Assembly: GCA_032718475.1 (NCBI GenBank)
Contig: JAUCBJ010004813.1
Location: forward strand, 37,016 to 101,015
From: Nemertoderma westbladi
Taxonomy: Eukaryota; Animalia; Xenacoelomorpha
Direction: 5' to 3'
DNA length: 64,000 nt
Part shown: one piece after another, positions 1-38,902 of the stretch
Position numbering within the stretch: position 1 is the first letter of the stretch
How the letters are laid out: every line of letters starts with the position of its first letter
Position numbers and translations under genes: made by a program
The notes under the pieces: generated by a model
Database searches by the model: none
Told to the model about the DNA's origin: nothing
Seen by the model: only the letters and a program-made list of their open reading frames with translations

Positions 1-1176
1 AGCTTTTGTGGGATAACTGATTCGTTTGCCTTGCTAACCAGTTCCCCCCAGTCGCTAGAATACTCTAAAAAGGGATCTATAACTCGAATAGCGCAAGCTA
101 CCGGCTGATTGGCTGATTCGCTGTGCGAAGGGATCTGGGCTACGTTTGATTGTCCAACCAGCTTGGGAAAGTATCTGCCAATAGAATTTGAGTTGATTTT
201 GATTTCGACCTATCACAGATCTACTGAACTGAATTTTCCTATCTGTATGCTCTTTCTCTGTGTTGGGTGGAAGCCTTTGTAAATAAGGTTATTCTTATCA
301 GTTTTCAGTGTTGTTGGTCTTTCTTTCCTGAGCCAGGAGAGAACGGCTTGTAAATATTTTGTGCTTTTCTGTTTTAGTCTAACACTAGTAGGCTTAATTA
401 TAAAGGGCATATATCCGTTATCAATCCATAACATAACAAAACAATCAATGCAAACCGCAAACTAATGAACTTAACGCACACTGAATCACTGTGCATACTT
501 TTATATTGTTATACTGCTATTTACTGTCAGTTCTTCATAATATGGTTGATGAATTATTATATTTGGAATAACGATAAATAACCCCGAAACCCAATATTCT
601 TGATATACCGAAGGTAAGAGAGAAAGGTTACATATAACGATTGTGACTTATGTTAAAGTGGTTTGAAGTGAATCTAATGTTATTTGATAGACCCTACATG
701 AGTCAGTCCGTGTTCCTTTTATATATAACTAAAATCAGTGAAGATCGGCAGATCAGTGTGCAGTATTGTGCAGCATTGTGTATGAGTGAGCCTGATAACG
801 AAGCATTTCCTAAAGAATGCGCCATATATGTGAATTATAACTAAGCCATATCGTTGTGAGTAGTTTAAGTCATAACTCTGTTTGTATAGATAAAGCGCCA
901 CGTCCTAAAGGAACTGTTAATATTCCCCGAAGGTGAATAATATTGTCAGAGATTATATAATACTGTCAGTCGAATAATACATTAGGCTTACATAGCAATA
1001 AAATTAAGCCGTCGAACCCAATCTCCCGGGTATATCCAGCGGGTGAATGATCGCGCACAGATTGGTTTCGACTAGTGTAGTGAATTAAATACTTGTCATA
1101 GACTAAAGGTGATTTATTATCTAGAAGACATCCTAATTTGGCGGGTTAAACTGCCAAAGGTCTGAAAGCGCGAACA
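1..1176 (+). repeat. 5' LTR of copy 1 (first ~6 nt outside window)
   Basis: Matches 16303-17470 apart from one substitution and one 8-nt indel (CAGATCAG) seen by eye. Ends ...GCGCGAACA. Confidence 0.96.
410..421 (+). promoter_or_regulatory. Putative self-primer / transcript 5' end (TATATCCGTTAT)
   Basis: Exact reverse complement of 1177-1188. The homologous site in copy 2 (38138-38148) covaries with its PBS. Confidence 0.75.
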
Positions 1177-1188
1177 ATAACGGATATA
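1177..1188 (+). promoter_or_regulatory. Non-tRNA primer-binding site ATAACGGATATA
   Basis: Directly follows the LTR terminal CA, lacks TGG, and is complementary to 410-421. Confidence 0.75.
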
Positions 1189-1244
1189 GCTTCTTTATTG
1201 CAGTAAGCAATAAAGTTGAAAGTACCGGTCAACCGGTAAACCTG

Positions 1245-1375
1245 AATGGTACTTCAGTAGGTCAGTAGGCCCAACCGCCAGAACCGGTACTGCCGTAGGT
1301 CAGTAGGCCCAACTGCCAGAACCGGTACTTCTGTAGGTCCGTAGGCCTAACTGTCCTAACCGGTACTCCCGTATA
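1245..1375 (+). repeat. 38-bp tandem repeat in the 5' leader (~3.5 units)
   Basis: Unit ACCGGTACTTCTGTAGGTCAGTAGGCCCAACTGCCAGA; about 2.5 units in copy 2 (~38960-39055). Confidence 0.85.
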
Positions 1376-1547
1376 AGTACACTAGTATTATTCGATTTGA
1401 TTGTTGCATACCGGTAGGCTATTTAAGGGATTAGGGATTGATCACCCCTTATTCCTTTATATGGTTTACTTATTTCTGTCAAGTTTTATTTATTTGTAGG
1501 CCAGTATTGAGCAGAAGGCGTGTAAGCCTGCTCAGATTGTACAGACA

Positions 1548-2123
1548 ATTTGTAGGCTGAGCTGTTGTCTGATTGCTGTTAAGTCCGAACGGATTGCAGT
1601 GTGTGTAGATCATCTGTCCGATAAAGAACGGTTAGGAAGTAGGGGCAGCGAATGCTGTAAGGTAAACCCCCAACTAAAGAATAAGTCGTACTACTGGGTT
1701 AGAACGCATACTACCTAATCATTTCGGAGTCTGCATGTCCTGTAGTTTATTTAGGCTTGAGAGTAGTCTGCCATCGTTTAGTCTGTACTTTGTTTGTGTA
1801 AGTCTGTACGGGTAGCGTATAATATTTATTTAGATAATTTGTAGGCTGGATAGTTGTCTGGTTGTTATTAGGTCTGAACGGATTGCAGTGTGTGTAGATC
1901 ACCTGTCCGATAAAGAACGGTTAGGAAGTAGGGGCAGCGAATGCTGTAAGGTAAACCCCCAACTAAAGAATAAGTCGTACTACTGGGTTAGAACGCATAC
2001 TACCTAATCATTTCGGAGTCTGCATGTCCTGTAGTTTATTTAGGCTTGATAGTAGTCTGTCAGTGTTTGGTCTGCATTTTGTTTGAGTAGTTTGTACGCG
2101 TAGCGTAATATTTATTATTCAGA
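1548..2123 (+). repeat. ~289-bp tandem duplication in the 5' leader
   Basis: Units start ~1548 and ~1837. The same duplication is present in copy 2 (~39229-39800). Confidence 0.9.
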
Positions 2124-3430
2124 GTTTATGTGATTATTCGCAACATTCATTCCCCAAGTTTGTTCCTACAGTAATTGTGCTTGTTATACATACCGCTATA
2201 GTTAAATTAACCCCGGTACTACACGGGCTGCTTGGCGTAGGTAAAGACTGGTGATTTTGTGCACCGGTTACTCCAGCAGATGCCGTGGTTCTTTTAGCTG
2301 TTCAAGTATATTTAACTACTGATTATCTGTTCTACAAGTACTCGTACCTAATTTAGGGTTTAGTGTACAGTGCTTTCCGAAAGTAATTAGTGTAGGCATT
2401 ATATTTGTGTTGTAAAGTGGTTGATAGGCACGTTCGATTAGCTCTATTAACTTCTAGGTAGGAACACTCCGTGATACATAACGTAGTACCTATAGCGATA
2501 CGGCTATAGGTCGTCAGGCGGTGGTATTTTCCTATCTGGACAACGCAGTGTATTTACTGCTACGTATTATTTTCAAATAACCGCAGTACCCTGTCCGTTG
2601 TAATAACCAGTTTTCTAACCCTTTGTTAGGCTGGTTTGTAGACTTCTTGTAAAATTACCCTAAAAATTCGTATTTTGTGTTTTTGTAAATTTTTGTGTTT
2701 ATTTAGAGATTGTAATCTCACCTGAATTGTACGTAATTTGTAGTATTAAGTAACTTAGGTAAATTAGAATCATTTGTTTTAGTGTACTATACGTAACACT
2801 TCACTGAAAGCGCACCGCTTTGTGTAGTGATTACTCCCCAGAAATAATAACATTTATTTCAAACATTGACAAAACCCATTAAAACGGGTATATATATGTT
2901 ATAAATCAACTCAAACGATTTATAAATAGTAGGCCTGCCATACAACCATTAGGTCTCAATATCAGTTGGATTACTGCTCAAATAACGGTAATAAAGTAAG
3001 TAAAGTAACTAAGTAACCCTAAAATTCAGAAATTCAATTATTTAAAATAATTGATATACCGGTATTTACGATAGGCCTATTATCTTTATTTCTATAAGTT
3101 TTGGCTGAAATTATACCGGTACTTGTAATTAATTCTATTCCAGAATTATAATTATATACTACAAAACTGTAAGCTGTATACCGGTATTCCGATAGGCCTA
3201 TTATATATTTATATATATTTGTGCTAAATTTATACCGGTATTCTGTGATAAACCTAGTCTGTAATAATAGTTATATATACTATAAGCATACCGGTATTCT
3301 AATATATTATATATCACGCTACACTGAGTAGCAGTACCGGTAATTAATTACTAGGCTATCAGTTAATACTGAGTTACTAGACTTGCCCAGACTGTAATAC
3401 AGCAGTAGACATTCAACTGTAAACATAAAC

Positions 3431-6400
3431 ATGTCTGATACTAAGCAGAACCTGTCGGACAGTTTATTAGATGTAACTATCTGCGACTCAGATAGAGACG
3501 TAGAACCGTCTGGTCGTAAGTTCAGTTCACCTCCCACTGTGAGGAAGGTCACCCCTCCAGTAGTAATAAGAGAACCTAGGCTGGTCCAACATCGTAGGTC
3601 TATCATAGGCACGCGAGCTCAGGTCAAGCGGAACCAAGAAGCAGCGGAACAGCAACAACCCGCGAGCCAAGAACTTACTTCTCAACGGCCCAACAGCTCC
3701 AGTAGTGAGGATACTGTAGAGCTGACACCCGAACGCGGAGCAAGGATGACGGATGAGGCTTATTCAGATCCCCTTCTCATCCTTCCTGCAGCCGTACTCA
3801 CTAGGTTATTGATCGCTGTGGAAGAACACCAGATCGATTGGGCGAGAAGCCAGCGTTCAACTAGAGATAGTTATGCTGGATACACAAGGGAAGAACTGAA
3901 GTCCATGGTCGAGTCGCAATGGAACTTCCCCGGACCCGGACTCCCGTTTGATTTATCAGAAGCTGCCTGGGAAGACATACACCGGATGGGAGTAGCCAAG
4001 GAAACCATCGATCCAGCTGTGTGGAAGAGGTCCGCAGCCGGATACGCACAGGGATTCTTCAGCTCTATAGAGCGATTAAAAGAACAACTGTTTCAACAAC
4101 CTCAAGGACCTCAAGAGCAGGGATTGCTGCTTTATCAAGTTAGAGAAAGAATTCTACGAATCAGGCTAATATTATCGTCCTTTGAGGAGGCTTCTAAACG
4201 AAGGCAAGACACGTCGTTGCAAGTTGCCATAAAGACTTGGTTTCAACGGGTGAGTCTCCAGGTTCAAGGAACAGCTCAGTGGAAAGCTCAGCTGGAGGAG
4301 CGCTCAACCCATGGAGAATCAACAGACGCTACTTTTTCCCAAGTGGAAAGTGAAGCAACGGCAGAGAAACCGCATAAGAGGGATGCCATTGACATCTATC
4401 TGTCAGACTATCAACGTTTTTTAGGTGATGACGAGTTGAGGAGAATGTTAGAGGGGCTTAGCCCTAATAGTGAAGGAACCAAGCTTGTGCTGGATGCTAT
4501 CGATGTGGAAATGAGAGCTGCGAACCAGGCTAAATTTGATGAACAACTCCGCATCACACGAGTCCAGGAGGAGCAAGTCAAGAAAAAACGTATAGAAGAC
4601 AGAAAGACAGCAGCAGTGGCAGCGGCAGAAGCAGAAAGAAAAGCGGCAGTGGCAGCGGCAGAGGCAGAGGCAGAAGCCGAAAGAAAGGCGGCAGAGGCAG
4701 AGGCAGAAGCCGAAAGAAAGGCGGCAGAGGCAGAGGCAGAAGCCGAAAGAAAAGTGGCAGCGGCAGCGGCCGAAGCAGAAAGAAAGGCGGCTGTAACAGC
4801 GGCCGAGGCAGTAGCAGAAGCAGAACGGAGAGCTTCCGAAGAAACCACCCAATTAGAATTGGAAAACATTCAGGAGAATCAAGACTGCATAAATAAACAG
4901 TTAACAGCTAGTAATATGCAGATGATGAATCGATCTACTCCCAAAAGACAGGGATATACATCATCTGAGGAAGGCGATACCACCGATACTGAAGGCAAAG
5001 GAAATAGATCTCGTCTAAGCAGACGTAAAAGAACATTCCACCGTCAGAAATTGCCTGATTTGCCTCCAGCTGTTAGAAGGCAACTAAATAACACCAACTT
5101 AGGTAGTACAGAGCCCACAGACCAAATAATTAAAATAGAAAGACTCCCTACTATAGTAGATGAGCCTGAAATAATTAGGCCTGTTCTTGAAATCACCCCT
5201 TCGGTGATAGACACACCTGTGCTCCCTGAAACTACCTCTAAATTCCCTCTGCATAGCACTAAGCTACCTGTGCCCCGTAGAACTGCCCAGGAGACAGTTC
5301 AGGTTCTGGACCCCGAGCGAAATATTCATAATTTGTCGCCCGTTGTCCCTCGTCCGCCCGCTACAACGTTGGCGACTCCCGCTTCGGCGGTCGAATGGGT
5401 GGACGAGAGACGGCGGGGGATGGATCTCCTGCTCGGGCAGATGCAGGAGACTGTCCAGCAATTCAAGGGCACAGTAAGGGAAAGTAGGCTAGAGTTGCAA
5501 GAAGTGCAACAAAGTATCGCGCTAGAACGCGATAAATTAGTAAATACTCAAAGGGGTATACCGCCACCCTCTGTAACAATGTGTCAACCTGTTAGGTCTG
5601 AAGTATCTCATGCGCAAGGTGTGGAGCCTACACGCATATATACTGCTAGCGAAGTAGAAACTCCTATAGTGAACCCTATTAAGGGTAATTATAGACCTGT
5701 TGATAATGACATTCCCTATAGAGCTGATCATAATCCGAGACATTTATATACCGATAACTCGATATTAAATAACACGATGGCCCAAGAAAGTTTTACGCGC
5801 CAAATGGCTAGAACCGAAGCCCGGCAAGCGGTAAAGGTGGGAGAGATCGTCAAGTTCAATGGAGATGAGATGAAATGGTTACCTTTTAATGAATATTACA
5901 AAGATAACATACAGAACTCTGTACTATCTAATGGAGAGAAACTTAGATTCCTCATAGAGTGCTTGGAAGGATCTCCCAAGTCAATGGCGTTAAAGTTTAT
6001 TGGACATCCAGACGGATTAAGACAAGTTTGGGACACACTAAACATCAGGTATGGTAATAGGAATAATATCGCTAAGTATTTATATGCAAAATTAGTAGCG
6101 CCCAGGAAGTTCATCAGCAGTGGGATAATAGAGTTTTCCGATGAGATTCAAGAGATCTGTAGACAATTAGATTGGTTAGGTAAGTCTCATGAATACCAAA
6201 GTTCTATGGTCATTGGAGCTGTGGCTTCTACTTTACCGAAAGGTGGGGTAGGCACACGCTGGGATAAGAAAGTACTATATATGATGGAACAACAACGACG
6301 AGACCCTACCATGGCTGATCTCATGTCATTCCTAGATGGAGAAGTGAAATTACAGCTCCTGAAACTGTCTAGGGAGAAGACACCGGAAAACAAGGTAAGT

Positions 6401-9400
6401 GAAAAACCCGTCTCTAGGAGAAAGGTAACACCAGTGTGTTATACAGACGACGGCGAAAGCCAGACTTCTCAAGGAGAAGATAGCGGGAAAGACACTGATA
6501 GATCTTATTACGTAAATAAAATGCCTAAAGATCAGGTAAGTAAATTCAAGTCTCGAACAAATGACAGGAGAGAACAGGTAAGAAAAACTCCTCCTACGTC
6601 TCCCAAGAGAATTCCGGTGAGAAAGCCCGAAGAAAAGGCAAGTGTACACAATGTGACTCAAAATAAGGTAAGTAACATCAAACCGAAATGTGCGCTGTGT
6701 GACGGGACCCACCGTTTGAATATGTGTGATGAATTCCTGAAGAAGTCATTAACGGAGAGACGCGAAGTCATGTGGGATAAGCGGTTATGTTATAATTGCC
6801 TCAGACAAGGACACCAACGGCGTACCTGTTTCTCTGACATAAGGTGTGCAAAGTGTGGTGCGAAACATCATATCTTGTTGCACGCTGAATTCGATCGAAA
6901 TAGTCCGAGTCAGGTAAGTGATTCCGAGCTACATGTCCAATTCAGTGATGTGAACGACACTGATCAATCTGAGATGGAAGGATTCTATACAGACGAGTTC
7001 TCCGACGAAAACGAATCCTGTTACATGATAAATACCGCAGTGTATCGAGCACTCACATATGAAAAGGATACAGACAGCGACTTCACTCTAACCACTTCTG
7101 AACGACAACCATCTTGGAAAGAGCCATCTTCCAATGTAGGGATCCGAGAGTTTCCTGTGGTGCAAGTAAGGGTTCACGGACCTAAGAGGAGTTATGTAGT
7201 GAACGCCCTCCTTGACTCCGGTAGTACAGGAACATTCATCGACAAAGAGCTAGCCGAAGATATATTTGCTGGACAACCCAAGTTCCAAACCAAGCTCAAC
7301 ATGTCCGGCATTATGCAAGTTTGGAAATCTACAATAACAGCTGATTATTATGTAGGCGCGTTGTCCACCCCACAAGACGAACTAGGAGAACATAGCATAA
7401 GGTCAGTGAAAATGGTAGCTATAAAGAACTTCGCTACTACTCAAGCAGACCTTTATAATTGGGACGAGGATGAGAGCATCCAACATCTTAACATACCTCG
7501 ATTCCAGACTGATTATCCTGGAGTGCAAATACTCATCGGCCAAAACGCGCATGAGGCGCTGGAGACATTAGAGAAACGGCCTGCTCAACCGCAGCCACTA
7601 CAGACCTATGCGGTAAGAACTAGAGTAGGTTGGTACTTTACTGGCCCTTCCCGTAGAACACTCAGAGAAAGACTACCTCAAGAGAACGTCTGCCAGGTGA
7701 GTGAATGGGAAGAGAGTACTAGTGAGGGAGACGATTCAACTGAGGGAATTCCATACTCCTCAGATAACGACGACGTTCACCAGCTTTTTGATGAGGAGAA
7801 TACCATCGACCTCCTTAAGGAAAACGAGGCTTGGCAAAACCAAGTGAACTTATGTCAACTTCTTTATCCATCTGAACAAGAAGCTTATAACGACGAGTTA
7901 AATGACGTCATTGAGCGTCATAATGCCAAGACTCGAGACGAACATGCCGTACGATTCTTTACGCAAGAGGCGGTAGAGCCCAATTCCTACGATAAAGCCT
8001 TGTCGGTGGAAGAGGAAAGGGCCAAGCAGATCCAAGAGACAACTACACGTTTCCTCAAAGATCAAGGTAGGTATGAAGTCGGTTTACCTTTCCGCAAGAA
8101 AGAACCGAAGTTCATCAATAACAGACCCTTGGCGGAAAAAAGAATCGCGCAACTCCATCGACGCCTTACGGCTAATTCTTCAGCTAAAGCAATGTATCAA
8201 ACACAGCTGGAAAAATTTATTAGTAAGGGATACGCGGAGAGAGTACCGGAAGAAACACCTGTGACTGAAAGAACGTATTACTTAACTCACCATTACGTTC
8301 CTAAACCCGGTAAGCCACATGAAGTGAGAGTAGTGTTTGATGGCTCCGCTCTTTACATGGGTCAATCCCTTAACTCTGAATTGTTACCCGGACCCAACTT
8401 GCTTCAATCTTTGTTGGGAATTCTTTTAAGATTGAGACAATATTCGATTGCTTTCGCCTCCGATATAGAAGGCATGTTCTTACAAGTCAAGGTGTTAGAT
8501 AGGGATCGAGATAGTCTACGATTTCTGTGGTGGCCCGAAGGAGACCTCAACCAGAAACCGGTGGAGTACTGGATGACCATCCAGGCCTTTGGGATAATCT
8601 CAAGCCCTTCCAACGCCTGTTCGGTAGTGCGTACCACCGCAGAGGACAACCGAGAGGCCTTCTCTAAGGAAGTGATCGACAACATCAAGAGAGACATATA
8701 CATGGACGACAATCTGAAGTCCCTTCCATCAGTTGAGGAAGCCATTGAGGTCGCTAAAGGAACGGTAGAGTGCTTAAAAAGAGGTGGGTTTCGATTAACC
8801 AAATTCACCAGCAACTCCCGTGAGTTTCTGGAGTCGATCCCTGCGGAAGATCGAGGAGCGAAAGATCTCGATTTGATCAAAGATGATCTGCCAGAAACCA
8901 AGACACTCGGCTTGAAATGGGACACAGAGCGAGATATCCTGTTTTTCCAGCTAAAACAGCGAGATAATCCAGTTCGAACCAAACGGATTTGCTTAAGTAT
9001 ACTGAGCACTTATTTCGATCCATTGGGATTTATTAGCCCAGTTATATTGATTGCTCGTAGTTTGGTACAACAAATGTGGCTTGAAAACCACTCATGGGAC
9101 GATCCACTTAAGGGAGAATTATTGAAGAAGTGGATGGAATGGGAAGATTCTCTGCCGGCTATCGAGGATTTTATAATTTCCCGTTCATATTTTGGTCATG
9201 TTCTCCCTACGTATTCCTATCAACTCCATGTGTTTGGAGACGCCAGCGATATGGGAATAGGTATAGTAGCCTACCTAAGAGTGGAAACTCCGGATGGAAT
9301 CAAAGTCGCCTTGGTTACTTCTAAGGCATTAATCAACAACAAGTTGAAAGTTCCTCGAGCGGAGTTAAAAGCGGCTCTATACGCTACAGCCATCGGCCGG

Positions 9401-11584
9401 AATGTAACAGAACAGATTGACTATCCATTAGAGAAAACGGTCTATTGGACCGACGCTTTACTCGTGTTAGAGTATATAACCAATGAAGTCTGTCAGTTCA
9501 GCGTCTTCGTTACCAACAGGGTAGCCATCATACTTAGTCGCACGACGATGGACCAATGGAGACATTGCCCCGGAACGATTAATCCAGCAGACATCGCTTC
9601 CCGAGGAGCGACTCCAAAGGAATTGGTAAATACTCCCGAATGGTTAGGAGGACCCGACTTTCTCTACAGAGAAGAAGAAGAATGGCCTCCCCATCTCACA
9701 ACAGCAGAGATCAGACAGGCCAAGGGAGCGGAGAAAGTTAAACCCAAAACTCGAGCGAGTAAATCGAAGTTGTTTAAACCTGCGGTTGATCTATCTGTAT
9801 TATTTACTTCCGGAGAGGATGCTTTGGATCAGAAACCCACCGCCACGGATAAAGAAGTCTTGGAAATTCGTGACAAGGATTGGAAATCTGGAATACCAGA
9901 TATCTCACAAGGACTCTCACCTCTCTTGCAGAGAGCGATACGTCACTACAGTTCCTGGAATCGGCTCTGTAAAGCCGTCACCTATTTAAAACGATGTTTT
10001 CATCATCGTTACTCCGGGACCAAGACCAATAGGGATGATGCTCCATCAACATCTGCACGAGTCCATGTTGTTAAAGATCTTCCCCAATACAAGGTATCCG
10101 ACAGGTTTCTAAAGGAGAAGATCAGTTACCAGGAGCATGATGAAACCAACAAACAGATGCTGAGACTTCTACAATGTTATGAGGATTCCGATAAGTATTT
10201 CCTGTTGTTAAGAAATCCACAGATGCGCTTAAGGGATCACTTCTCTAGTACCATGATAGATGGGTTAATACGTGTTGGAGGTAGACTGACCAACGCTCCA
10301 TTATCCTTTGACACTAAGTTTCCCATCCTCATTAGAAATCTTGACATACAAATCAAGATGATTGTAGATGTTCATAGCAAACTGTACCATGCTGGTAGAG
10401 AACGAGTTCTGAGCGAAATTCGCACTCGCTACTATTTTTATAAACCCCGTAGGGCTCTGAACCAAGTTCTTAGGAACTGCATGCCCTGTAGGAAAGCATT
10501 CAGTAGGCCTTTAACACAGCGAGAGGCAGAATTACCTAGGGAAAGAGTAAGCTTCTATGAACCACCCTTTACTAATACCGGTGTGGATTTATTTGGCCCT
10601 ATTGAAGTATATCGTGCCCGGACTATAGTCAAGAGATGGTGTGTCATCTTCATTTGTATGACTTGTAGAGCTATCCATCTCGATATGGTAAACGATCTAT
10701 CCACCAACAGCTTCGTGTTGAGTTTACGACGACAGATCGCTCGCTTCGGAACCAGTAACACGATGAGATCGGATAAGGGAACGAACTTCATTGGCGCCAA
10801 CAACGAAATTCAAGCTTACGTAAAGGACTGGAACAAAAGACAGGTGGACGATCAGCTAAGGATAACAGCGTCTAGCTGGACCTTCAACGCCGCCGACGCC
10901 CCTTGGTGGGGAGGAAGTTGGGAGAGATTGATTAGGAGCGTGAAGACTGCGTTCCACTTTATTGTGCCTTGTCGCGCTTATCTCACCGACGAACTATTGC
11001 GGACGTTAATGGAGGAAATCGCCGCCTATCTCAACGAAAGACCGCTTATGCCAGTCTCTTCAAGTCCGGATTCCCTGGAAGCGCTAACACCCGCGCACTT
11101 TCTACTGAAGAAACCCGTAGCCATGCTCCCACGATCGGAGATCACAGACGGAGACGAGTACTGCCGTCAAACCTGGCAACTTATGCAGTTGCTATCCCGT
11201 CGTTTCGCTGACCATTTCGAGAAACATTACCTGCCCACTCTACAACTTCGAACTAAGTGGTTTGCGCAGCAAGAAAACGTCAGCGCTGGAGACATGGTGC
11301 TTATTGTGGACCCCGATCTCCCACGTAAGCGATGGCAAACAGGACGTATCATCGAGACTCATATCTCGAGCGATGGTTTGGTGCGATCAGTAGAGCTCGT
11401 CGTCATGCGTCGTAACTTTAAGAAACCAGGGATAGTCTTTGAGACTCAACAGCTCAACCGCCCAGTGGGTCGTTTATGTTTACTGGAAAGAGACAGAGAG
11501 CTCTCCGGAAACTATGGAAGGCAAGAAACCCTTCCCACGACCACTTCCCTAATCCAACCGACATCTAGGGACTCCCCAACTTAA
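3431..11584 (+). CDS. BEL/Pao Gag-Pol polyprotein, 2717 aa, uninterrupted
   Basis: Knuckles CALCDGTHRLNMC / CYNCLRQGHQRRTC / CAKCGAKHHILLH; protease ALLDSGS; RT FASDIEGMF and IYMDDNL; RNase H VFGDAS, PRAEL, WTDA, NPADIASRG; integrase HSKLYH..CMPC, GVDLFGP, SDKGTNF, GGSWERLI. Confidence 0.97.
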   Translation: MSDTKQNLSDSLLDVTICDSDRDVEPSGRKFSSPPTVRKVTPPVVIREPRLVQHRRSIIGTRAQVKRNQEAAEQQQPASQELTSQRPNSSSSEDTVELTPERGARMTDEAYSDPLLILPAAVLTRLLIAVEEHQIDWARSQRSTRDSYAGYTREELKSMVESQWNFPGPGLPFDLSEAAWEDIHRMGVAKETIDPAVWKRSAAGYAQGFFSSIERLKEQLFQQPQGPQEQGLLLYQVRERILRIRLILSSFEEASKRRQDTSLQVAIKTWFQRVSLQVQGTAQWKAQLEERSTHGESTDATFSQVESEATAEKPHKRDAIDIYLSDYQRFLGDDELRRMLEGLSPNSEGTKLVLDAIDVEMRAANQAKFDEQLRITRVQEEQVKKKRIEDRKTAAVAAAEAERKAAVAAAEAEAEAERKAAEAEAEAERKAAEAEAEAERKVAAAAAEAERKAAVTAAEAVAEAERRASEETTQLELENIQENQDCINKQLTASNMQMMNRSTPKRQGYTSSEEGDTTDTEGKGNRSRLSRRKRTFHRQKLPDLPPAVRRQLNNTNLGSTEPTDQIIKIERLPTIVDEPEIIRPVLEITPSVIDTPVLPETTSKFPLHSTKLPVPRRTAQETVQVLDPERNIHNLSPVVPRPPATTLATPASAVEWVDERRRGMDLLLGQMQETVQQFKGTVRESRLELQEVQQSIALERDKLVNTQRGIPPPSVTMCQPVRSEVSHAQGVEPTRIYTASEVETPIVNPIKGNYRPVDNDIPYRADHNPRHLYTDNSILNNTMAQESFTRQMARTEARQAVKVGEIVKFNGDEMKWLPFNEYYKDNIQNSVLSNGEKLRFLIECLEGSPKSMALKFIGHPDGLRQVWDTLNIRYGNRNNIAKYLYAKLVAPRKFISSGIIEFSDEIQEICRQLDWLGKSHEYQSSMVIGAVASTLPKGGVGTRWDKKVLYMMEQQRRDPTMADLMSFLDGEVKLQLLKLSREKTPENKVSEKPVSRRKVTPVCYTDDGESQTSQGEDSGKDTDRSYYVNKMPKDQVSKFKSRTNDRREQVRKTPPTSPKRIPVRKPEEKASVHNVTQNKVSNIKPKCALCDGTHRLNMCDEFLKKSLTERREVMWDKRLCYNCLRQGHQRRTCFSDIRCAKCGAKHHILLHAEFDRNSPSQVSDSELHVQFSDVNDTDQSEMEGFYTDEFSDENESCYMINTAVYRALTYEKDTDSDFTLTTSERQPSWKEPSSNVGIREFPVVQVRVHGPKRSYVVNALLDSGSTGTFIDKELAEDIFAGQPKFQTKLNMSGIMQVWKSTITADYYVGALSTPQDELGEHSIRSVKMVAIKNFATTQADLYNWDEDESIQHLNIPRFQTDYPGVQILIGQNAHEALETLEKRPAQPQPLQTYAVRTRVGWYFTGPSRRTLRERLPQENVCQVSEWEESTSEGDDSTEGIPYSSDNDDVHQLFDEENTIDLLKENEAWQNQVNLCQLLYPSEQEAYNDELNDVIERHNAKTRDEHAVRFFTQEAVEPNSYDKALSVEEERAKQIQETTTRFLKDQGRYEVGLPFRKKEPKFINNRPLAEKRIAQLHRRLTANSSAKAMYQTQLEKFISKGYAERVPEETPVTERTYYLTHHYVPKPGKPHEVRVVFDGSALYMGQSLNSELLPGPNLLQSLLGILLRLRQYSIAFASDIEGMFLQVKVLDRDRDSLRFLWWPEGDLNQKPVEYWMTIQAFGIISSPSNACSVVRTTAEDNREAFSKEVIDNIKRDIYMDDNLKSLPSVEEAIEVAKGTVECLKRGGFRLTKFTSNSREFLESIPAEDRGAKDLDLIKDDLPETKTLGLKWDTERDILFFQLKQRDNPVRTKRICLSILSTYFDPLGFISPVILIARSLVQQMWLENHSWDDPLKGELLKKWMEWEDSLPAIEDFIISRSYFGHVLPTYSYQLHVFGDASDMGIGIVAYLRVETPDGIKVALVTSKALINNKLKVPRAELKAALYATAIGRNVTEQIDYPLEKTVYWTDALLVLEYITNEVCQFSVFVTNRVAIILSRTTMDQWRHCPGTINPADIASRGATPKELVNTPEWLGGPDFLYREEEEWPPHLTTAEIRQAKGAEKVKPKTRASKSKLFKPAVDLSVLFTSGEDALDQKPTATDKEVLEIRDKDWKSGIPDISQGLSPLLQRAIRHYSSWNRLCKAVTYLKRCFHHRYSGTKTNRDDAPSTSARVHVVKDLPQYKVSDRFLKEKISYQEHDETNKQMLRLLQCYEDSDKYFLLLRNPQMRLRDHFSSTMIDGLIRVGGRLTNAPLSFDTKFPILIRNLDIQIKMIVDVHSKLYHAGRERVLSEIRTRYYFYKPRRALNQVLRNCMPCRKAFSRPLTQREAELPRERVSFYEPPFTNTGVDLFGPIEVYRARTIVKRWCVIFICMTCRAIHLDMVNDLSTNSFVLSLRRQIARFGTSNTMRSDKGTNFIGANNEIQAYVKDWNKRQVDDQLRITASSWTFNAADAPWWGGSWERLIRSVKTAFHFIVPCRAYLTDELLRTLMEEIAAYLNERPLMPVSSSPDSLEALTPAHFLLKKPVAMLPRSEITDGDEYCRQTWQLMQLLSRRFADHFEKHYLPTLQLRTKWFAQQENVSAGDMVLIVDPDLPRKRWQTGRIIETHISSDGLVRSVELVVMRRNFKKPGIVFETQQLNRPVGRLCLLERDRELSGNYGRQETLPTTTSLIQPTSRDSPT
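4610..4835 (+). repeat. AEAEAERKAA coding repeats in the Gag N-terminal extension
   Basis: Repeated GCAGAAGCCGAAAGAAAGGCG-type units; fewer units in copy 2 (~42285-42425). Confidence 0.85.
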
Positions 11585-13624: not shown

Positions 13625-14438
13625 GGTTGATGCGGACAAATAAAAGAGAACCACTGGAGAAGAGACATGGGTTAATGTCCAGGGTCCATAATGTGAATAG
13701 TTTTCCCCGGGGCACGGGTGCTCGCGGGCGGTCTCCTTCGGGAGGCTGTAACTTTCTCTTCCTTCATCGTTTTCCTGTAATTATTGTGATCAGTGTCACA
13801 ATTAAAAGGCAAGAATGAATGATGATGTGGCGGAAAACACATCCATTGTGGTATCTCATGGATACTATCGTATATCCTCCCTCCTCTCTACTCCTCTTAC
13901 CCTCTTATACGTTGTTACTAAAGATACGACATATTTCGTCCCACCTTCTCTTCCCAACGTGCTCGGAGCTTCGGGAAACGAGCACTAAACCTCCCATCCC
14001 TTACTGTTAATCTGGATGCTAATATTGGTGTCCGCACCTCCTGTCCATGTGCCATTCTGTTGATATTTATGATATCAACTTCCACCCTCTCGTTGTTGAT
14101 TAGATAATCAACCACCAAGGATTTCCTTAAATCCACAACCGTGATACAAGGACTGAAAGGACACGCAGTTAGTAGGTGAACAACTGGTACCATTGTGTGT
14201 CATAAATCTGGTTGTTCACCTCCCTCAATGATTGGAGATATAAATCTTATAATCTGTAGAACAACTGAGGCATTGAACTGGTTGTTCCCTCATCGCACTG
14301 GGGATAAATTCAGTTGGAGATAGTCCTCGAATGTAACAATCCTCCTACTGAGATCGTATTTCTGAATATTTAGAATGCGAAATAGTTTTTTCCTCTGCTC
14401 TACCATCGCTGTCGGAGAACATATTAGGCATACAACAG
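13625..14438. other. ~814-bp unrelated sequence replacing ~2.08 kb of ORF2
   Basis: Homology to copy 2 stops at GAAGAA (13624 = 51172) and resumes at GAATATGGA (14439 = 53257). The intervening DNA has no match elsewhere in the window. Confidence 0.85.
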
Positions 14439-14442
14439 GAAT

Positions 14443-16218
14443 ATGGAGAACATTCCATATCCCTTCGTTGATACTCAGCTGATTGCCCCTTGGGCCGAAG
14501 GCCGAGGTTTCTTTCGCACTATGTATGCCAATACACCCAGCGACATTACTAAGGTACAACGGACATCCATCGGACATCTTGCCTTTCAAGAATATGGGTG
14601 GAATTTCAAAGTTGGAAATCCTACCAATTACCAGCAAGTATATGGAGATCATTACTCTCGTTTATATTTTGATGGACCATTAACTGCGCCTGGTGCCGTA
14701 TATAGCTTTATGAGTGTTCCACTTCGCCCTTCCTTAGCTATATACACGATCTTTGAAAACGCTGCACTTGCCGGTTGGCTAGCCGATGTGTGCAGTCGTA
14801 CCATACGCGCTCATCCCTTAATACTTGGAACTAAACTCGCCAAGTTAGACGAACACAATAAGTTCATACGTTTCGAATGTTTCCGGCGCTTTCTGACTCC
14901 GTTCCGTAACGTCGATAGTCAGTTCAGGGACCGCGCGCTGACCAAACTCAGTCTGAGAGACTCGGCTGCGGAGAAACTGAGTAGCGCTGGATTTGCCGTG
15001 TTTCAAGACGTTTGTATACAGAACTCACATTCATCTGTTATACAAAGACCCCGAATACCTACAGGTTATTCTGTCGTGGAAATACAGACAGTGGATCCAC
15101 TTACTGAGACAGACGCACCCACTTCGTCTATACAACTGGAGGATGAACCAGTGTGCTTGGAATCAGAAGCGATTCAGCCTACAACTTCTCGGAGCAGTGA
15201 CAATGATTATGTCATAGAGTGGTATCAAGGTCCACAGCGTCTCACAGCGTACGATTATCGACACGCCAACTACGTTTCTCGAAAACGTTGTCGATTATGC
15301 GCATCGAGAGACCACTTCACTCCTCTAGACTCGAGCGTACCTTGTTCCTATTTCCTCGAACAACCGATGATGGAAATATATTGTGCTTATTGCCGGCTTA
15401 ATAACTCTCATATATTTGCCATCTGCCCACAATTTATGACTCAATGTCACTACTGTCAACTTAAAGGACATGAAAGTTACAATTGTCCCTTTAATCGCGA
15501 TTTAGAGAGCGTAGACGAGATGATCACCCTGCGATACATCCGAGCTTGGGAAGCGAACGCCGATTTACATTGCGAATCCCGACATCGCTATTACCCTGGA
15601 CGAGCTTACGAGGGAGTTTACGCGTTCCATCCTTATCTATTCGCGTCGATTGAACAGAAAACACGCGTACCAAGTTACGAGTTAATGAAGCGTGTTGGTG
15701 AGTGTATTTCCACCAAGTTTGTCAGGAAATACCTTAGAAACGTTAACCCTAATGATATAACCACATATCACCTGATCAATTTTATCCGTCAGGACCCTGA
15801 GTATGGCGACATCTTTGTGAACTCGCATCCTGAACTACAGGAAATATCTCGGCGACCATATGAATATCGAACCCGAGAACGCGAGCTGGAGAGAACCATT
15901 AAACCGAGAAAGTTCCTCACCACTCACGGTCCACCCACCGCTAGTGTCCAGACGACCCGTCAAGGACCCGTAGGAGCTGCTGTCCTGAGACGCGCTCTAA
16001 AGGTCGTTAGACCTCGCTCTACTGAGGTTGATATTAATCAACCAGGTACTTCGACCGGCGGGTATACCGATCGTAACCCTGCGCCTTCTGATGCAATTAT
16101 ATTGCACCCTTCGCCTAGGAGCTACAGCCCTCCTCGTAAAGTGGCTCGCCCCAAAGAGAAAAGGACTCTTGCTAGCTTTAAAAAACTGCGTAAACGCCGT
16201 TCGCGCAAGAAAGACTAA
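14443..16218 (+). CDS. C-terminal 591 aa of ORF2: end of the exonuclease-like fold, CCHC zinc knuckles, basic tail
   Basis: Open frame homologous to 53261-55035; contains CRLCASRDH, CAYCRLNNSHIFAIC, CHYCQLKGHESYNC and ends KKLRKRRSRKKD. Confidence 0.8.
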   Translation: MENIPYPFVDTQLIAPWAEGRGFFRTMYANTPSDITKVQRTSIGHLAFQEYGWNFKVGNPTNYQQVYGDHYSRLYFDGPLTAPGAVYSFMSVPLRPSLAIYTIFENAALAGWLADVCSRTIRAHPLILGTKLAKLDEHNKFIRFECFRRFLTPFRNVDSQFRDRALTKLSLRDSAAEKLSSAGFAVFQDVCIQNSHSSVIQRPRIPTGYSVVEIQTVDPLTETDAPTSSIQLEDEPVCLESEAIQPTTSRSSDNDYVIEWYQGPQRLTAYDYRHANYVSRKRCRLCASRDHFTPLDSSVPCSYFLEQPMMEIYCAYCRLNNSHIFAICPQFMTQCHYCQLKGHESYNCPFNRDLESVDEMITLRYIRAWEANADLHCESRHRYYPGRAYEGVYAFHPYLFASIEQKTRVPSYELMKRVGECISTKFVRKYLRNVNPNDITTYHLINFIRQDPEYGDIFVNSHPELQEISRRPYEYRTRERELERTIKPRKFLTTHGPPTASVQTTRQGPVGAAVLRRALKVVRPRSTEVDINQPGTSTGGYTDRNPAPSDAIILHPSPRSYSPPRKVARPKEKRTLASFKKLRKRRSRKKD

Positions 16219-16296: not shown

Positions 16297-17470
16297 TGTA
16301 AAAGCTTTTGTGGGATAACTGATTCGTTTGCCTTGCTAACCAGTTCCCCCCAGTCGCTAGAATACTCTAAAAAGGGATCTATAACTCGAATAGCGCAAGC
16401 TACCGGCTGATTGGCTGATTCGCTGTGCGAAGGGATCTGGGCTACGTTTGATTGTCCAACCAGCTTGGGAAAGTATCTGCCAATAGAATTTGAGTTGATT
16501 TTGATTTCGACCTATCACAGATGTACTGAACTGAATTTTCCTATCTGTATGCTCTTTCTCTGTGTTGGGTGGAAGCCTTTGTAAATAAGGTTATTCTTAT
16601 CAGTTTTCAGTGTTGTTGGTCTTTCTTTCCTGAGCCAGGAGAGAACGGCTTGTAAATATTTTGTGCTTTTCTGTTTTAGTCTAACACTAGTAGGCTTAAT
16701 TATAAAGGGCATATATCCGTTATCAATCCATAACATAACAAAACAATCAATGCAAACCGCAAACTAATGAACTTAACGCACACTGAATCACTGTGCATAC
16801 TTTTATATTGTTATACTGCTATTTACTGTCAGTTCTTCATAATATGGTTGATGAATTATTATATTTGGAATAACGATAAATAACCCCGAAACCCAATATT
16901 CTTGATATACCGAAGGTAAGAGAGAAAGGTTACATATAACGATTGTGACTTATGTTAAAGTGGTTTGAAGTGAATCTAATGTTATTTGATAGACCCTACA
17001 TGAGTCAGTCCGTGTTCCTTTTATATATAACTAAAATCAGTGAAGATCGGTGTGCAGTATTGTGCAGCATTGTGTATGAGTGAGCCTGATAACGAAGCAT
17101 TTCCTAAAGAATGCGCCATATATGTGAATTATAACTAAGCCATATCGTTGTGAGTAGTTTAAGTCATAACTCTGTTTGTATAGATAAAGCGCCACGTCCT
17201 AAAGGAACTGTTAATATTCCCCGAAGGTGAATAATATTGTCAGAGATTATATAATACTGTCAGTCGAATAATACATTAGGCTTACATAGCAATAAAATTA
17301 AGCCGTCGAACCCAATCTCCCGGGTATATCCAGCGGGTGAATGATCGCGCACAGATTGGTTTCGACTAGTGTAGTGAATTAAATACTTGTCATAGACTAA
17401 AGGTGATTTATTATCTAGAAGACATCCTAATTTGGCGGGTTAAACTGCCAAAGGTCTGAAAGCGCGAACA
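16297..17470 (+). repeat. 3' LTR of copy 1 (1174 bp, TG...CA)
   Basis: TGTAAAAGC...GCGCGAACA; matches the 5' LTR. Confidence 0.96.
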
Positions 17471-20400
17471 CGAATGCCAACTTGATGTTGCAAGACCTTC
17501 CACGAAACCTGGTTATAGGGGCTGGGTTTTCTAGCCTCCTCGTCTTCTATAGGAGCCTCGTGGGTAAGAGCCCGATAGATGGCTGCGTTGATCATATAAC
17601 ACGTTTCATTTTCATTGGAGAACTCATAAGTATAGAAGCCGTCCATTTCTGAGCTGTGATCGGTATCATTTACGTCACTGAATTGAACGTGTACATCTGG
17701 TTCACTTACCTAGTCGAATTCACTGTGCGGCAAAGAGTGGTGTTTAGCTCCATACTTAGCACACTTGGACTCTGAATAACAGGTCCTTCACTGATGTCCT
17801 GTCCTCAGGCAGTTGTAACATAACCTTTTCTCGAAAGCTACGTTATGTCTTCCCTTAAGATCTTTCCTTAAGAAGGCCTCACACTTACGCAGACAGTGGG
17901 ATTCCTCACACACTACGCATTTAGCTGGCTGAAGTTTTTCACCTTTAGATAATACAGACTTTTGTATGTTATCTTAATAATATTCATTAAACAGTATTCA
18001 CTTCATCTCATCTCCATTGAATTTTACTACCTCTCCCACTGATACCACTTGGCGGGCCTCTGTTCTGGCCATCTGATGGGTGAAACTCTCCTGAGCCATT
18101 GTATTATTAATATGGAATTATCTGAATACGTATTATGAGGATAATTTGAAGGAATATAAGGAGTATCATTACAAGTTTGTTTGTATATTGATGTTATTTT
18201 TGATAGGGGTTTCAACACCACTAGCAGTATATATGCATTTAGGATTTATATTATTATTACATGTATTTAGCAGTTTATATGCCTGTCTTCCTACCTCTCT
18301 CTGCCTTTTTTCGAACCGCCACTCCTCAGACTTCGCCGACGGTGCGACTCTGAGAGGTTGGGTCTGCTGAAAGACGGCAGCCACGGGGGACAATCCTCCC
18401 CCAAAGGTGACTCTCTGCCCCTGGGAATTAGCAGCATTCATCGTGAGTCAGCTGCTAGTCAGGTGTAGATTAGTTCTCTCTATGGGGAATTTCGAATTCG
18501 GTTCTAATATTAAGGGCGTTTCAGATATAGGGACAGTTCTAACGACATGCCTATTTAATTCTGGCTCATCTAAGATGGTAGGAACCCTACCGGGCGGGAT
18601 ATTTGCCTGTGCTATATCGCCAGACCTCAAGTCAGGATCAGCCAACTCTCTTTTGCACTGGTACTGTAGGAGCAAGTTAGGCACCTTGCGTCCCAACGGG
18701 GCTTGTCTGCGCCCATTTGAGCTAAATCGATAACTCCTGCAGTCGGATTCCATGGTAGTGCCTTCATCCGAATAGGTGATGAATCCCTATTTCTTAGGAG
18801 CCACTTTGTTCCTGATATTTGTTTTGGCTGCTTCTACCTGTTTTCTTTTTAATTCCTGCCATTCTTTAATTGCTTCTAGTTCTAATTCCACTAACTTTCT
18901 TGTCTGTTCCATGTGACCGGGTTTTGTCTAGGTTCGATACGCGTCGCCGTGTCCGCTTACTGTGGCTGAATGACTGAAGGTTGAAGGTTGAAGGCCGGTT
19001 ATGATAAAGGAGTTTGGTGTTAATGCTGTTAATCTCTCATAAGTATACAAGTACCGGTAGTAATCAGTACAACAGTAATCACAATGATAGCATACAACGA
19101 TGGCGATGGTTGAAAACCGTCCAACTTCTGCTCACCCAATATACCAACTAAAGTACGATTATAGTAACGGTTATATATTACATGGGACACATTAATTACC
19201 TAGGTTTGGCCAACCAGTGGACACGCTGCAATTGGACACATGCTGTCCATGGTTGATCTATCCCCTTGGCCACGACTTCCGGGTCAAATCCCATTGTCCG
19301 CGCTACCCTATCACCTACACTATCTCTCCCAGCATGGCCTATAGTATGTACAGTAAGACCTACAGTATGTCCTGCAGTCTGTACGTGTTCCTCGCGATCG
19401 AAGTTTAATCTTCTCGAATATTCCGAGAACTCCTCCCCACGACTAACATATTGTCGATTGGCAGCTACGTTCCGACGGGAAGTTTCCCTTCGATGTCTTC
19501 TTCTCTCAATCTCCTCGTCCCGGTACACTCTGTACCCCTCTCTCGGTGTATAATATACATCACCGGGCTGTGTTCCTCCGGGGCGATGGCAATCTCCCGA
19601 AGACAATCCCACCGGCGCTATCTCTCTACTTCAAGTATCGACAGTTCACTGTCCGTCCTATCTCGATATTTCCAGTTGCCCGTAGCAACATTTCCTCGCT
19701 CATCTCTTCCGAATGGGTTCGGCGCTCCCCCCCCCCCCCCCCCACTGTGGTTCTTCATAAAAACTCCCCGAACCAGCTTCGCTCTCTTATAAACCCAGTT
19801 TCACCATTCTAACCGGCGTTATTGCTTGGCCTGATACTGCATTAACCCCCTCAACCGGGCGTGCATATCATCCCACATTCTTCTACCAGCCATCTCCCTC
19901 TCCCTTTCCTCTCTAATACTCTGATCGACAAACTCAGCCTCCCTCACCTCCCGCTCTTTGCGCTCGTTCACCTCTCTCTCAATCCTCGCTGCCTCCCTCG
20001 CATCCCACTCTTTGCGCTCGTTCACCTCTCTCCCAACCCTCTCTGCCTCCCACGCAGCCCTCTCTCTATACTCTCTTGCCACCCTCTCAGCCCTCTCTTT
20101 ATACTCTCTCGCTAATTCCCTTTCCATCTCTAACAACGCAGTTCTTCATTCAACTGCCTCTCTAACTCCTTTTGGTCTAATGCTGCTATGTCTAGCTGAC
20201 ACGCCAGATCTATCTCTAACACTCTCCTTGCTTTCACAGAGGGTGTAGCGGACTTTTCGGTTGAGACGGACTCCCGTCGCCTGTTGGTTCCACTAATTTT
20301 ATCGTGTCTGCTAGCGGTTTCACTAACGGATGAAGCCTAATCTTCCGGGATAACCTCGAGTTCGGCGTCGTTCGAACCCGCCCATCCCACTAACTTAACC

Positions 20401-32297: not shown

Positions 32298-34718
32298 TTA
32301 GAATTTAATATAAACCAAACAGTTACGGACAGTTTCGTAAACAAATAATCCTTTATTGGTTCCAACAGCCAACCCACCGAACCCGTCTACCGGCACCGCA
32401 CCCAATCGGGATACTTTCCATCCATCATCAACCAGACGATAAACACCGACATATTGTTTATAATATTCTTCTAAAGGAACTAAGTGATACCATCCGCCTT
32501 GGTACAGCCACTCCACTCCCCCGATAGGGACGGATTTACCGCAATCTATAACTGATCGCGTTATACCCAATAGGAGGGTAACGTTGTTGGGGTTGGAGCC
32601 GCGAACGTTATAGTCGCAGACGGATATCTTCCGTTCGTCGGGTTGGAACAGAATGGCGGTTATTGAGTTGGAGCTGGAGCCGTACCAACCGGTACCAAGA
32701 AGTCTCCCGGGTTCATCGACACGGGAAATCCAAATAATCGAACAATCGTTTGGGTTAAATCGAATAATGTAATTATATTCAGTAATTACATATACATAAC
32801 GATCCCAATACCGTGACAACCCAGTTATAGATCCTAGAGGTTTACGACCGAGGTGTCTCTCGTTACCCAGACAACGATGTCGGACTTTCTCTCCAACCGC
32901 CTCTGTATCTATAAGAAACAGACAAACATCCGTCGCGGCGATCCAGAATGTATCGCTGCGACTCTCCAAGAATATAATCGGTTTCTTTGCGGCGTTGCAG
33001 TCGCTTTTGACCCCAAGTGGTTCTCCACGTGGAGATAAAGAATCGTCGGTGTTGACGTTATAGAAACAAATCCTGTCGGTTACGGAGTCGGTTATCCCCA
33101 GGATCCTCCCGCCACAACCAATCGGGCCGACTTTACCGATTCCCATTCTCCGACAATCGACCCGACAAGTTTCCTTTAGAGTTGGATTTTTTAGTAAAAC
33201 TTTCTCATATTGGAGGAGATCAAATCGCCTCTCCATTTCAACCCTCACTGGATCCCCCACATTCTTCAGCTTCCCTGCATCCTCCACTTGCTCTACCTCC
33301 ACTGGATCCCCCGCCTTCACCAGACCCACTGGATCCTCTACCTCCATTGGATCACCCACCTTCACCAGACCCACTGGATCCCCCGCCTTCATCAGACCCA
33401 CTGGATCCCCCGCCTTTACCAGACCCACTGGATCCTCTACTTCCACTGGATCACCCACCTTCACCAGACCCACTGGATCACGCACCTTCACCAGACGCAC
33501 TGGATCCCTCGCCTTCACCACACCCACTGGATCCTCCACCGGATCCCCCACCTTCCTAAGCCCCACTGGATCCCCCACCTTCCCCAGCCCCCCTGGATCC
33601 CCCACCTTTTCCATCTCCTCTGGATCCCTCCTCTTCTCTCCTAAATCCCCTTTATTTACAACACAAACACGACTGATAAACCCTCCCAACCCCTTTGGTA
33701 ACTCGACTGGAACGAAACGTACTTCCGGCACCGCAACAAGTTCAACCTCAGAGATCCGCTGCTCGATTTCTTTGTATTTCTTTAGGATCTTCTTGTCTTC
33801 CGGTATTTCTTTGATCAACTCGGAATTCTTTATCTTCTTATAATATTCGTTCTCTTCAGGAATTCCAATATAAGCGAGATTTTCTTTTGCTGCGGATATT
33901 TTACCCGCCGTTTCGGTTTTTAGATCCCCAATCTCCTTCATCATCGCATCTTCAGCCGCCTTTAATTCGTTGTATAAACATTGGAAGTGTTTGCGGACGT
34001 CGTCGGTGGAAACTTCAGTGACGTCGTCTAAATCCTCCAGAATTCCTTCCAACACTGTTAGTTTATTATCCAATCGCGACCTCAACTTCCACGGACCGTC
34101 TACTAAGTTTCCTCGGATTGTTTGACAGACTTCGTTTGAATACAAAATCTCGTGATCTTTAGAAACACCGTCAACTGAATGGCATTGACGGCATACAAGA
34201 GATTCGCATTTCTCGCAATAATGGCGTTTGTTTAGACCGTGGATACCACACAGATCCGGATCCGGTTCATTAGATCCACCAACTGCTCCTTGTTTTTCCA
34301 GGTCGATGTCGTCAAAGCTGCATCCCGCCTGTCCACCCGCTGGTGCCGAATCAGTTTGGTTAATATCACCACAGACATGGAAGAGTTCACACTGTCTGCA
34401 CAATTCTGTCCTGCAATCTTTACTGGGATTCGTTCCTTTATTTTTTCGACATCCCTCACATATTTTATCTTTGCGAATCAAATCGATCATTGAAGATATA
34501 ATATGATTGACGACCGGCAACGATTCGAGTTTCTTCACCTCGGTGGGATTCCGACACCGCGGACATTCTATCGACAGTCCATCACCGAGTTGTTTAGAAA
34601 CTTTAGCGATACATTTGAAGCAAAACGAGTGAGAACACTTCAACACTCGCGGCTTCTCCAATAATCGTAGACAAATAGAACATTCCAACTCTCGTTCCAG
34701 TAATTGTTCCTGTTCCAT
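32298..34718 (-). CDS. Intronless TRIM/RBCC protein (RING, B-boxes, coiled coil, 9-aa repeats, probable beta-propeller-like C-terminus), 806 aa
   Basis: RING CSICLRLLEKPRVLKCSHSFCFKC...CPRC; degenerate B-box1; B-box2 CGIH...YCEKCESLVCRQCH...H; helical region. The C-terminal fold is inferred from beta-rich pattern only. Confidence 0.88.
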   Translation of the reverse strand: MEQEQLLERELECSICLRLLEKPRVLKCSHSFCFKCIAKVSKQLGDGLSIECPRCRNPTEVKKLESLPVVNHIISSMIDLIRKDKICEGCRKNKGTNPSKDCRTELCRQCELFHVCGDINQTDSAPAGGQAGCSFDDIDLEKQGAVGGSNEPDPDLCGIHGLNKRHYCEKCESLVCRQCHSVDGVSKDHEILYSNEVCQTIRGNLVDGPWKLRSRLDNKLTVLEGILEDLDDVTEVSTDDVRKHFQCLYNELKAAEDAMMKEIGDLKTETAGKISAAKENLAYIGIPEENEYYKKIKNSELIKEIPEDKKILKKYKEIEQRISEVELVAVPEVRFVPVELPKGLGGFISRVCVVNKGDLGEKRRDPEEMEKVGDPGGLGKVGDPVGLRKVGDPVEDPVGVVKARDPVRLVKVRDPVGLVKVGDPVEVEDPVGLVKAGDPVGLMKAGDPVGLVKVGDPMEVEDPVGLVKAGDPVEVEQVEDAGKLKNVGDPVRVEMERRFDLLQYEKVLLKNPTLKETCRVDCRRMGIGKVGPIGCGGRILGITDSVTDRICFYNVNTDDSLSPRGEPLGVKSDCNAAKKPIIFLESRSDTFWIAATDVCLFLIDTEAVGEKVRHRCLGNERHLGRKPLGSITGLSRYWDRYVYVITEYNYIIRFNPNDCSIIWISRVDEPGRLLGTGWYGSSSNSITAILFQPDERKISVCDYNVRGSNPNNVTLLLGITRSVIDCGKSVPIGGVEWLYQGGWYHLVPLEEYYKQYVGVYRLVDDGWKVSRLGAVPVDGFGGLAVGTNKGLFVYETVRNCLVYIKF
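33245..33630 (-). repeat. 27-nt coding repeat (DPVGLVKVG) in the TRIM gene
   Basis: Repeated CACTGGATCCCCC.CCTTCACCAGACC on the + strand, with shorter DPVEVE units interspersed. Confidence 0.9.
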
Positions 34719-38891: not shown

Positions 38892-38902
38892 ATAACAGTT
38901 AT
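38892..38902 (+). promoter_or_regulatory. Non-tRNA PBS ATAACAGTTAT
   Basis: Abuts the LTR end; complementary to ATAACTGTTAT at 38138-38148. Confidence 0.75.

Follow-up and report, generated by a model that had tools for sequence, protein, structure and literature searches.

A Tf1-like self-priming signature in BEL/Pao retrotransposons of Nemertoderma westbladi and its putative intron-split form in related elements

The window, i.e. the whole 64-kb stretch of Nemertoderma westbladi DNA that was analysed, comprises two full-length BEL/Pao copies and one solo LTR of a third type, which are arranged as follows:

1-1176, forward strand: 5' LTR of copy 1, 99.2% identical to 16303-17470, with terminal CA; its first 6 nt precede the window
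3398-11584, forward strand: gag-pol of copy 1, open over 2728 codons, with DUF1759, Peptidase_A17, Integrase_H2C2 and DUF5641 and the motif YMDD
14428-16218, forward strand: C-terminal open part of the second ORF of copy 1, with zinc-knuckle-like motifs
16297-17470, forward strand: 3' LTR of copy 1, with a second copy of the candidate primer segment at 16713-16723
37694-38891, forward strand: 5' LTR of copy 2, preceded by the target duplication AATAA
41103-49161, forward strand: disrupted gag-pol of copy 2, spread over three frames (41103-42635, 42607-44079 and 44080-49161)
50768-55035, forward strand: second ORF of copy 2, divided into two parts (50768-53911 and 54040-55035)
55114-56306, forward strand: 3' LTR of copy 2, again with the candidate primer segment at 55558-55568; target duplication at 56307-56311
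57379-58546, forward strand: solo LTR of the third type, with the target duplication CTCCC and the candidate primer segment of copy 2 at 57815-57825

The LTR pairs are 99.2% identical in copy 1 and 99.1% identical in copy 2, which indicates young elements, while between the two copies the DNA is 82.5% and Pol 92-93% identical. PF03564, PF05380, PF17921 and PF18701 were matched in both copies by Pfam. The Pao-type gag-pol domains, in the order PR-RT-RH-IN, are those of BEL/Pao (Belpaoviridae) and confirm the family named in the initial annotation. Since no tRNA primer-binding site (PBS) is present in the window elements, their membership in BEL/Pao rests on the proteins. PF05380 was present in all of the best 120 homologues listed. 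Among these homologues the identity amounted to about 33-38% across the whole RT-to-integrase region and to 38-41% where only half of it aligns, and the named ones among the matches listed came from echinoderms, fish, cnidarians and other animals. No chromodomain was matched by Pfam in the window elements, and their proteins are not those of the Ty3/gypsy chromoviruses.

For Belpaoviridae, the ICTV describes an 18-nt PBS for tRNA-Arg or tRNA-Gly and a genome of 4-10 kb (PMC8742986). The window elements correspond to this description in their LTRs, gag-pol order, Pao domains and 5-bp target duplication, which was found together with TG...CA termini for copy 2 and the solo LTR (the left flank of copy 1 lies outside the window), and their LTR size lies at the top of the described range of 0.2-1.2 kb (PMC8742986). 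In contrast to it, they have no tRNA site, measure 17.5-18.6 kb and carry a second ORF without family match.

This second ORF is large and lies 3' of pol in both copies. By eye, motifs resembling 3'-5' exonucleases were read near 52820-53770 and zinc knuckles further on. The ORF of copy 2 gave no Pfam family at 0.001, and for the second ORF no PDB match was obtained and a single-sequence fold had a pLDDT of 29.7. Its sole relative among 1.84 billion representatives was P0124 (E 4.5e-6), whose sub-threshold matches to PF01612 (E 0.2, within the aligned stretch) and zf-CCHC provide a weak lead. Going by these motifs, an exonuclease-like enzyme encoded here could trim a primer. At about 613, 3' of the primer segment, lies a splice-donor-like site with homologues in the solo LTR and copy 2, from which a spliced RNA for this ORF could be made.

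Further features of the window were observed besides these. The leader of copy 1 (1177-3397, 2.2 kb) contains direct repeats of 38 nt and 290 nt, and the N-terminal part of Gag (within 3398-5900) is several hundred residues longer than that of the homologues. Directly to the right of copy 1, inverted fragments on the reverse strand (17558-18243) are 68-80% like the gag-pol region. An uninterrupted TRIM-like frame of 822 codons, matched by RING and B-box, occupies 32298-34766 of the reverse strand, for which no homologue was found at E 1e-30. A scan of the window for tRNA genes found none, an Rfam scan gave just one match, which was sub-threshold, the viral contigs scanned contained no relatives, and a metagenome scan with a single protein as query yielded no matches.

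Neither 5' LTR of the window copies is followed by TGG, as the initial annotation had stated, nor by an 18-nt site for tRNA-Arg or tRNA-Gly. The bases found at this position are complementary to a short segment of the LTR itself:

410-421, forward strand: candidate self-primer of copy 1, with an 11-nt core at 411-421
1177-1188, forward strand: non-tRNA PBS of copy 1, 0 nt after the LTR
38138-38148, forward strand: candidate self-primer of copy 2
38892-38902, forward strand: non-tRNA PBS of copy 2, directly after the LTR

The two intervals are perfect reverse complements over 12 nt in copy 1 and over 11 nt in copy 2, at exactly those coordinates where both complements had been placed initially, and the copy-2 segment that had been noted in the solo LTR near 57815 was recovered as well. 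In both copies the match begins 0 nt past the terminal CA, with the LTR ends set by the 3' LTRs and the 5-bp target duplications (AATAA for copy 2, CTCCC for the solo LTR). The complement ends precisely at the LTR edge, where the 3' end of a primer must lie. An LTR-adjacent PBS that is complementary to an LTR segment of about 11 nt characterizes the Tf1 type and is present in both window copies. Moreover, both PBSs begin with ATAAC, the same five bases with which the Tf1 PBS begins according to the available part of PMC11042837. A reading of the segment as a TATA box was rejected, because the fit was poor and the PBS match was left unexplained. Contigs of uncertain kind from one run were compared with 1-1500; one of them differs at 1177 and 1181, and the comparison also showed a joint that follows 420 as well as loose ends located at 372.

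Shuffled LTRs reached the observed match length in 1 and 3 out of 5000 cases for the two copies, and internal positions treated as mock PBSs did so in 3 of 15,060 and 4 of 16,162 cases. Together, these controls give a chance of 2-6 in 10,000 per copy for a match at this fixed position. A coincidental match could be aided by A+T richness and by the near-palindromic site of copy 2, where 10 of the 11 bases of the PBS equally form a direct repeat of that site, and further perfect inverted pairs of 10-12 nt are present in these LTRs. Since the site of copy 1 is not near-palindromic, the argument from complementarity is carried by copy 1.

In pairwise and short multiple alignments, the segment sites of the three LTR types are in register, while in a whole-LTR alignment they were not. 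Between copy 1 and copy 2, two base pairs differ on both sides, as determined from one pairwise comparison. The initial annotation had regarded these as compensatory changes. The double differences themselves stand, but they need not represent two selected mutations. In Tf1 cDNA, the primer is the template from which the PBS is made during reverse transcription, as described in the available part of PMC11042837. By such copying one mutation could yield a double change, and the compensation is therefore weaker as a sign of selection. This explanation, however, already takes the segment to be the primer. The further claim that the similarity of the LTRs rises downstream of 410 turned out to be only loosely right, since the stretch directly downstream of the site is an A/C-rich linker of poor conservation. 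Similarity between the LTR types as detected by BLAST begins near 503, and similarity together with conserved pairing extends upstream of the segment to about 372.

The cognate duplexes of segment and PBS were calculated at -12.0 and -10.1 kcal/mol, compared to -2.4 and -5.5 kcal/mol for swapped partners. In RNAs of about 890 nt beginning at the segment, the duplex is part of the minimum-energy fold, with pair probabilities of 0.84-1.0 in copy 1 and of 0.38-0.55 in copy 2 (0.77-0.94 at 20 °C). For RNAs starting about 110 nt further upstream, the duplex probabilities decreased to 0.04-0.05 and 0 at 37 °C. In nested folding, the duplex of copy 1 was lost in a fold from 300 and retained from 372, and that of copy 2 was lost from the place that matches 372 of copy 1. 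The modelled folding of copy 2 favours an RNA start near the segment. Four further elements of secondary structure were predicted around the duplex:

373-390, forward strand: 5' arm of helix A, pairing with 1090-1107
391-402, forward strand: 5' arm of helix B, pairing with 999-1010 (in copy 2, 38119-38130 with 38702-38713)
1137-1158, forward strand: U5 hairpin, in all three LTR types (in copy 2, 38850-38871)
1193-1215, forward strand: post-PBS hairpin, retained in copy 2 with one pair fewer

Helices A and B pair the 40 nt that precede the segment with sequence near 1000 and 1100 and are kept with other letters in two to three LTR types. For helix A, a homologous pairing with other letters was found in the solo LTR (57773-57782 with 58471-58480), and no equivalent was found in copy 2. 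Both helices cross the primer-PBS duplex and are formed in the predicted fold of the 3' LTR RNA. According to these models they would agree with a start near the segment and would exert their effect at the 3' end of the RNA. A pseudoknot formed from an upstream start is possible, which a nested folding program cannot display. No conserved TATA box was found 30 nt upstream of 411. In a test for the three-duplex 'pretzel' of Tf1, in which PBS-adjacent sequence pairs with U5, the predicted pairings of the PBS-adjacent bases differed between the copies, and the two flanking duplexes of Tf1 were not reproduced in the folds of the window elements.

Relatives were collected from an alignment of Pol, giving 79 metagenome loci, which rank highest among at least 540 that were confirmed. 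Of these, 72 were screened for repeats and 27, picked for LTR-like repeats or rank, were read by hand. The identity to the window over RT-RNase H was 39-44% for the 13 relatives compared. No TGG was found at the LTR edge in 18 of the 27 loci, corresponding to 17 families as L001 duplicates L003. All 18 contain a complement of 10-15 nt within their own LTR, which begins 0-4 nt past the LTR end; in 10 of the 17 families this end was placed by means of a CA instead of being set by two LTRs. This spacing corresponds to the range of the spacers in the two loci of the tRNA type, L034 (TGG 5 nt after the LTR) and L049 (2 nt), which both have short LTRs in which no intron was seen. To the remaining seven loci neither a self-complement nor a tRNA site was assigned. 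For L029, which has a plausible LTR end, no matching complement was found; L002, L013, L018 and L041 showed no LTR end in the part read, and in L032 and L040 the repeat turned out to be an internal duplication. The LTR terminus is TA, not CA, in both copies at L038 (7537) and L020 (90).

The PBS starts with GT or AT in 16 of the 17 families and in both window copies, while its letters vary between the copies and the 17 families, each matching its own LTR. A PBS that differs per element and yet matches the element's own LTR would be left unexplained by a host primer. Priming by a host tRNA fragment or another small RNA is a known mode from the half-tRNA priming of some Ty1/copia lineages (available part of PMC6317226), and is considered very unlikely here.

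A contiguous 11-mer complement, as present in the window, occurs in three families (L033, L035 and L065). For L003, L007, L009, L026, L038 and L042, a search for contiguous matches found no full complement in the LTR, and for this reason an intron test was made. In 14 of the 17 families the complement exists only across an intron-like GT-AG gap. The length of the split complement is 10 nt in L012, 11 nt in L019, L020, L022, L026, L042, L047, L058 and L066, 12 nt in L001/L003, L009 and L038, 13 nt in L068 and 15 nt in L007. The gap is whole in 13 families, where it measures 76-186 nt with GT-AG ends and, in 12 of the 13, a GTAAG donor. With junction patterns that were composed after reading the sequences, shuffles gave 0 matches for 12 of the 13 patterns and 1 in 200 for L020. 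In L047, one LTR contains the intron acceptor, and its counterpart has the joined form without intron (327-337 and 6918-6928). The missing exon end was deduced from the PBS first (reasoned, unrecorded), and precisely these 11 bases are present in the second LTR. Two sub-families may be joined in this contig. Since the complement exists only across a GT-AG gap in 14 families, a role at the RNA level is indicated, and in these families splicing appears to put the segment together by removal of an LTR intron. A description of a primer made by splicing was not found for any retroelement in the literature searched.

Judged from these sequences, the signature occurs widely in BEL/Pao, for the most part split by an intron. 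The self-priming BEL/Pao lineage proposed by the initial annotation is partly supported, namely by the missing tRNA PBS, the complement reaching the LTR edge and the 17 families, but it is not a lone lineage. Mere coincidence, for which the low frequency per copy and the homologous sites already leave little room, is extremely improbable in view of the recurrence in 17 families and the shuffles, nearly all without matches, and was rejected.

A different explanation would be a structural function of the duplex, such as genome circularisation, packaging, dimerisation or translation control, with something else acting as primer. Several other conserved helices exist in these LTRs, so that pairing alone is unremarkable, and the support for priming comes from sequence and folding. 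However, the complement has its 3' end turned towards the LTR edge in all cases, at a distance of 0-4 nt, which is the place required for the end of a primer, and the complement replaces the tRNA site, while the two loci of the tRNA type have short LTRs with no such intron seen. A purely structural role is thus regarded as unlikely. It could also be imagined that the element encodes a primer which acts in trans, originating from a short LTR transcript (3' LTR, solo LTR or early termination) without a Tf1-like cut. The exact preservation of the copy-2 segment in the solo LTR would agree with this, as would the LTR intron kept by the relatives, which implies that spliced and unspliced RNAs must both exist. 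Nevertheless, the cis duplex forms unaided in folding, position 421 is without a terminator-like feature, and an 11-nt duplex would be held more easily in cis, so that we consider a supply in trans quite unlikely.

Altogether, it is likely that the BEL/Pao elements of the window are self-primed by their own RNA. Accordingly worded as a pathway, the 11-nt LTR segment (411-421) would anneal to the bases directly after the 5' LTR, as predicted by folding, and would then be cleaved at its 3' side. This cut, probably made by the RNase H of the element in analogy to Tf1 (available part of PMC7175516), would leave a 3' end exactly at the LTR edge, from which minus-strand DNA synthesis would be primed. 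We are evenly divided on whether the primer consists of the initial 11 bases of the RNA, as in Tf1; alternatively, the segment could be the 3' end of a longer leader. As identified by eye, a TATA-like box precedes the segment by 31 nt in L001/L003 and by about 50-175 nt in L035, L033, L047, L007 and L058. The spacing in L001/L003 fits a 5'-terminal primer, while the boxes of the other five of the six relatives favour an internal segment. With the segment about 50-175 nt below the box in these five, a start away from 410 would be compatible with self-priming.

In the intron-bearing families, the segment would be joined by splicing out the LTR intron. Minus-strand copying of the 5' end would halt at the cut, and the upstream part would be copied from the 3' LTR, so that an intron within the segment would survive replication. 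Splicing of the 3' LTR copy would result in intron-less LTRs like those of the window. Read jointly, only the spliced LTR copy would prime, while the unspliced copy would pass the intron on. In the intron-less form, the helices with upstream LTR sequence may keep the segment copy of the 3' LTR out of play. We lean cautiously towards the broader reading that much of BEL/Pao is self-primed and that host splicing builds the primer, with the window representing an intron-less branch in which helices would act as the switch.

Self-priming has been reported or predicted for Tf1/sushi, Tcn1 and the TAR lineage of copia (available parts of PMC6317226, PMC10085805, PMC4600332 and PMC7175516). Tf1/Tf2 and Tj1 from fission yeasts and the Tf1/sushi group and Tcn1 clade, which are Ty3/gypsy chromoviruses, likewise possess, in the passages available, an 11-nt LTR-adjacent PBS complementary to an LTR segment and no tRNA site. 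Contrary to this group, the window elements carry BEL/Pao proteins and a much longer loop of about 750 nt, the two flanking duplexes of Tf1 are not seen, and the 5'-terminal position of the segment is only a candidate. In addition, the segment of 14 relatives is split by an intron, which the available passages of the Tf1 literature do not describe. The window elements may work like Tf1 but are not members of Tf1/sushi. For the TAR lineage, the prediction of self-priming relied on a PBS whose complementarity to the 5' LTR extends over 10 nt or more (available part of PMC6317226), and the window elements show complementarity of this extent. This lineage (Houba, Osr-1) is plant Ty1/copia and differs from the window elements in superfamily. 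Cer7 of C. elegans has reportedly been proposed to encode its own tRNA-like primer, which, unlike the segment of the window, is said to sit near the 3' end and to mimic a tRNA.

In the available part of the main BEL/Pao survey (PMC3118150), the terms PBS, tRNA and self-priming are absent, the term PBS is absent from that of the Sinbad paper (PMC554778), and those of PMC3601003 and PMC13524379 contain no case of BEL self-priming. No BEL/Pao element primed by itself or by splicing emerged from the literature search; a precedent may exist in subscription papers, Repbase, GyDB and supplements.

The sequence signature described here is strong and real, and it likely reflects a mechanism that is known from elsewhere but not from this superfamily. 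BEL/Pao makes up the third large LTR superfamily, and the ICTV definition has it as tRNA-primed. The predictions are exact to the base and can be tested by RNA-end sequencing. If they are true, independence of tRNA would have been reached by all three LTR superfamilies, BEL elements without recognisable PBS would be explained, and such elements would lie beyond the reach of host defence by tRNA fragments. If the primer is indeed built by splicing, the start of reverse transcription would be tied to the spliceosome.
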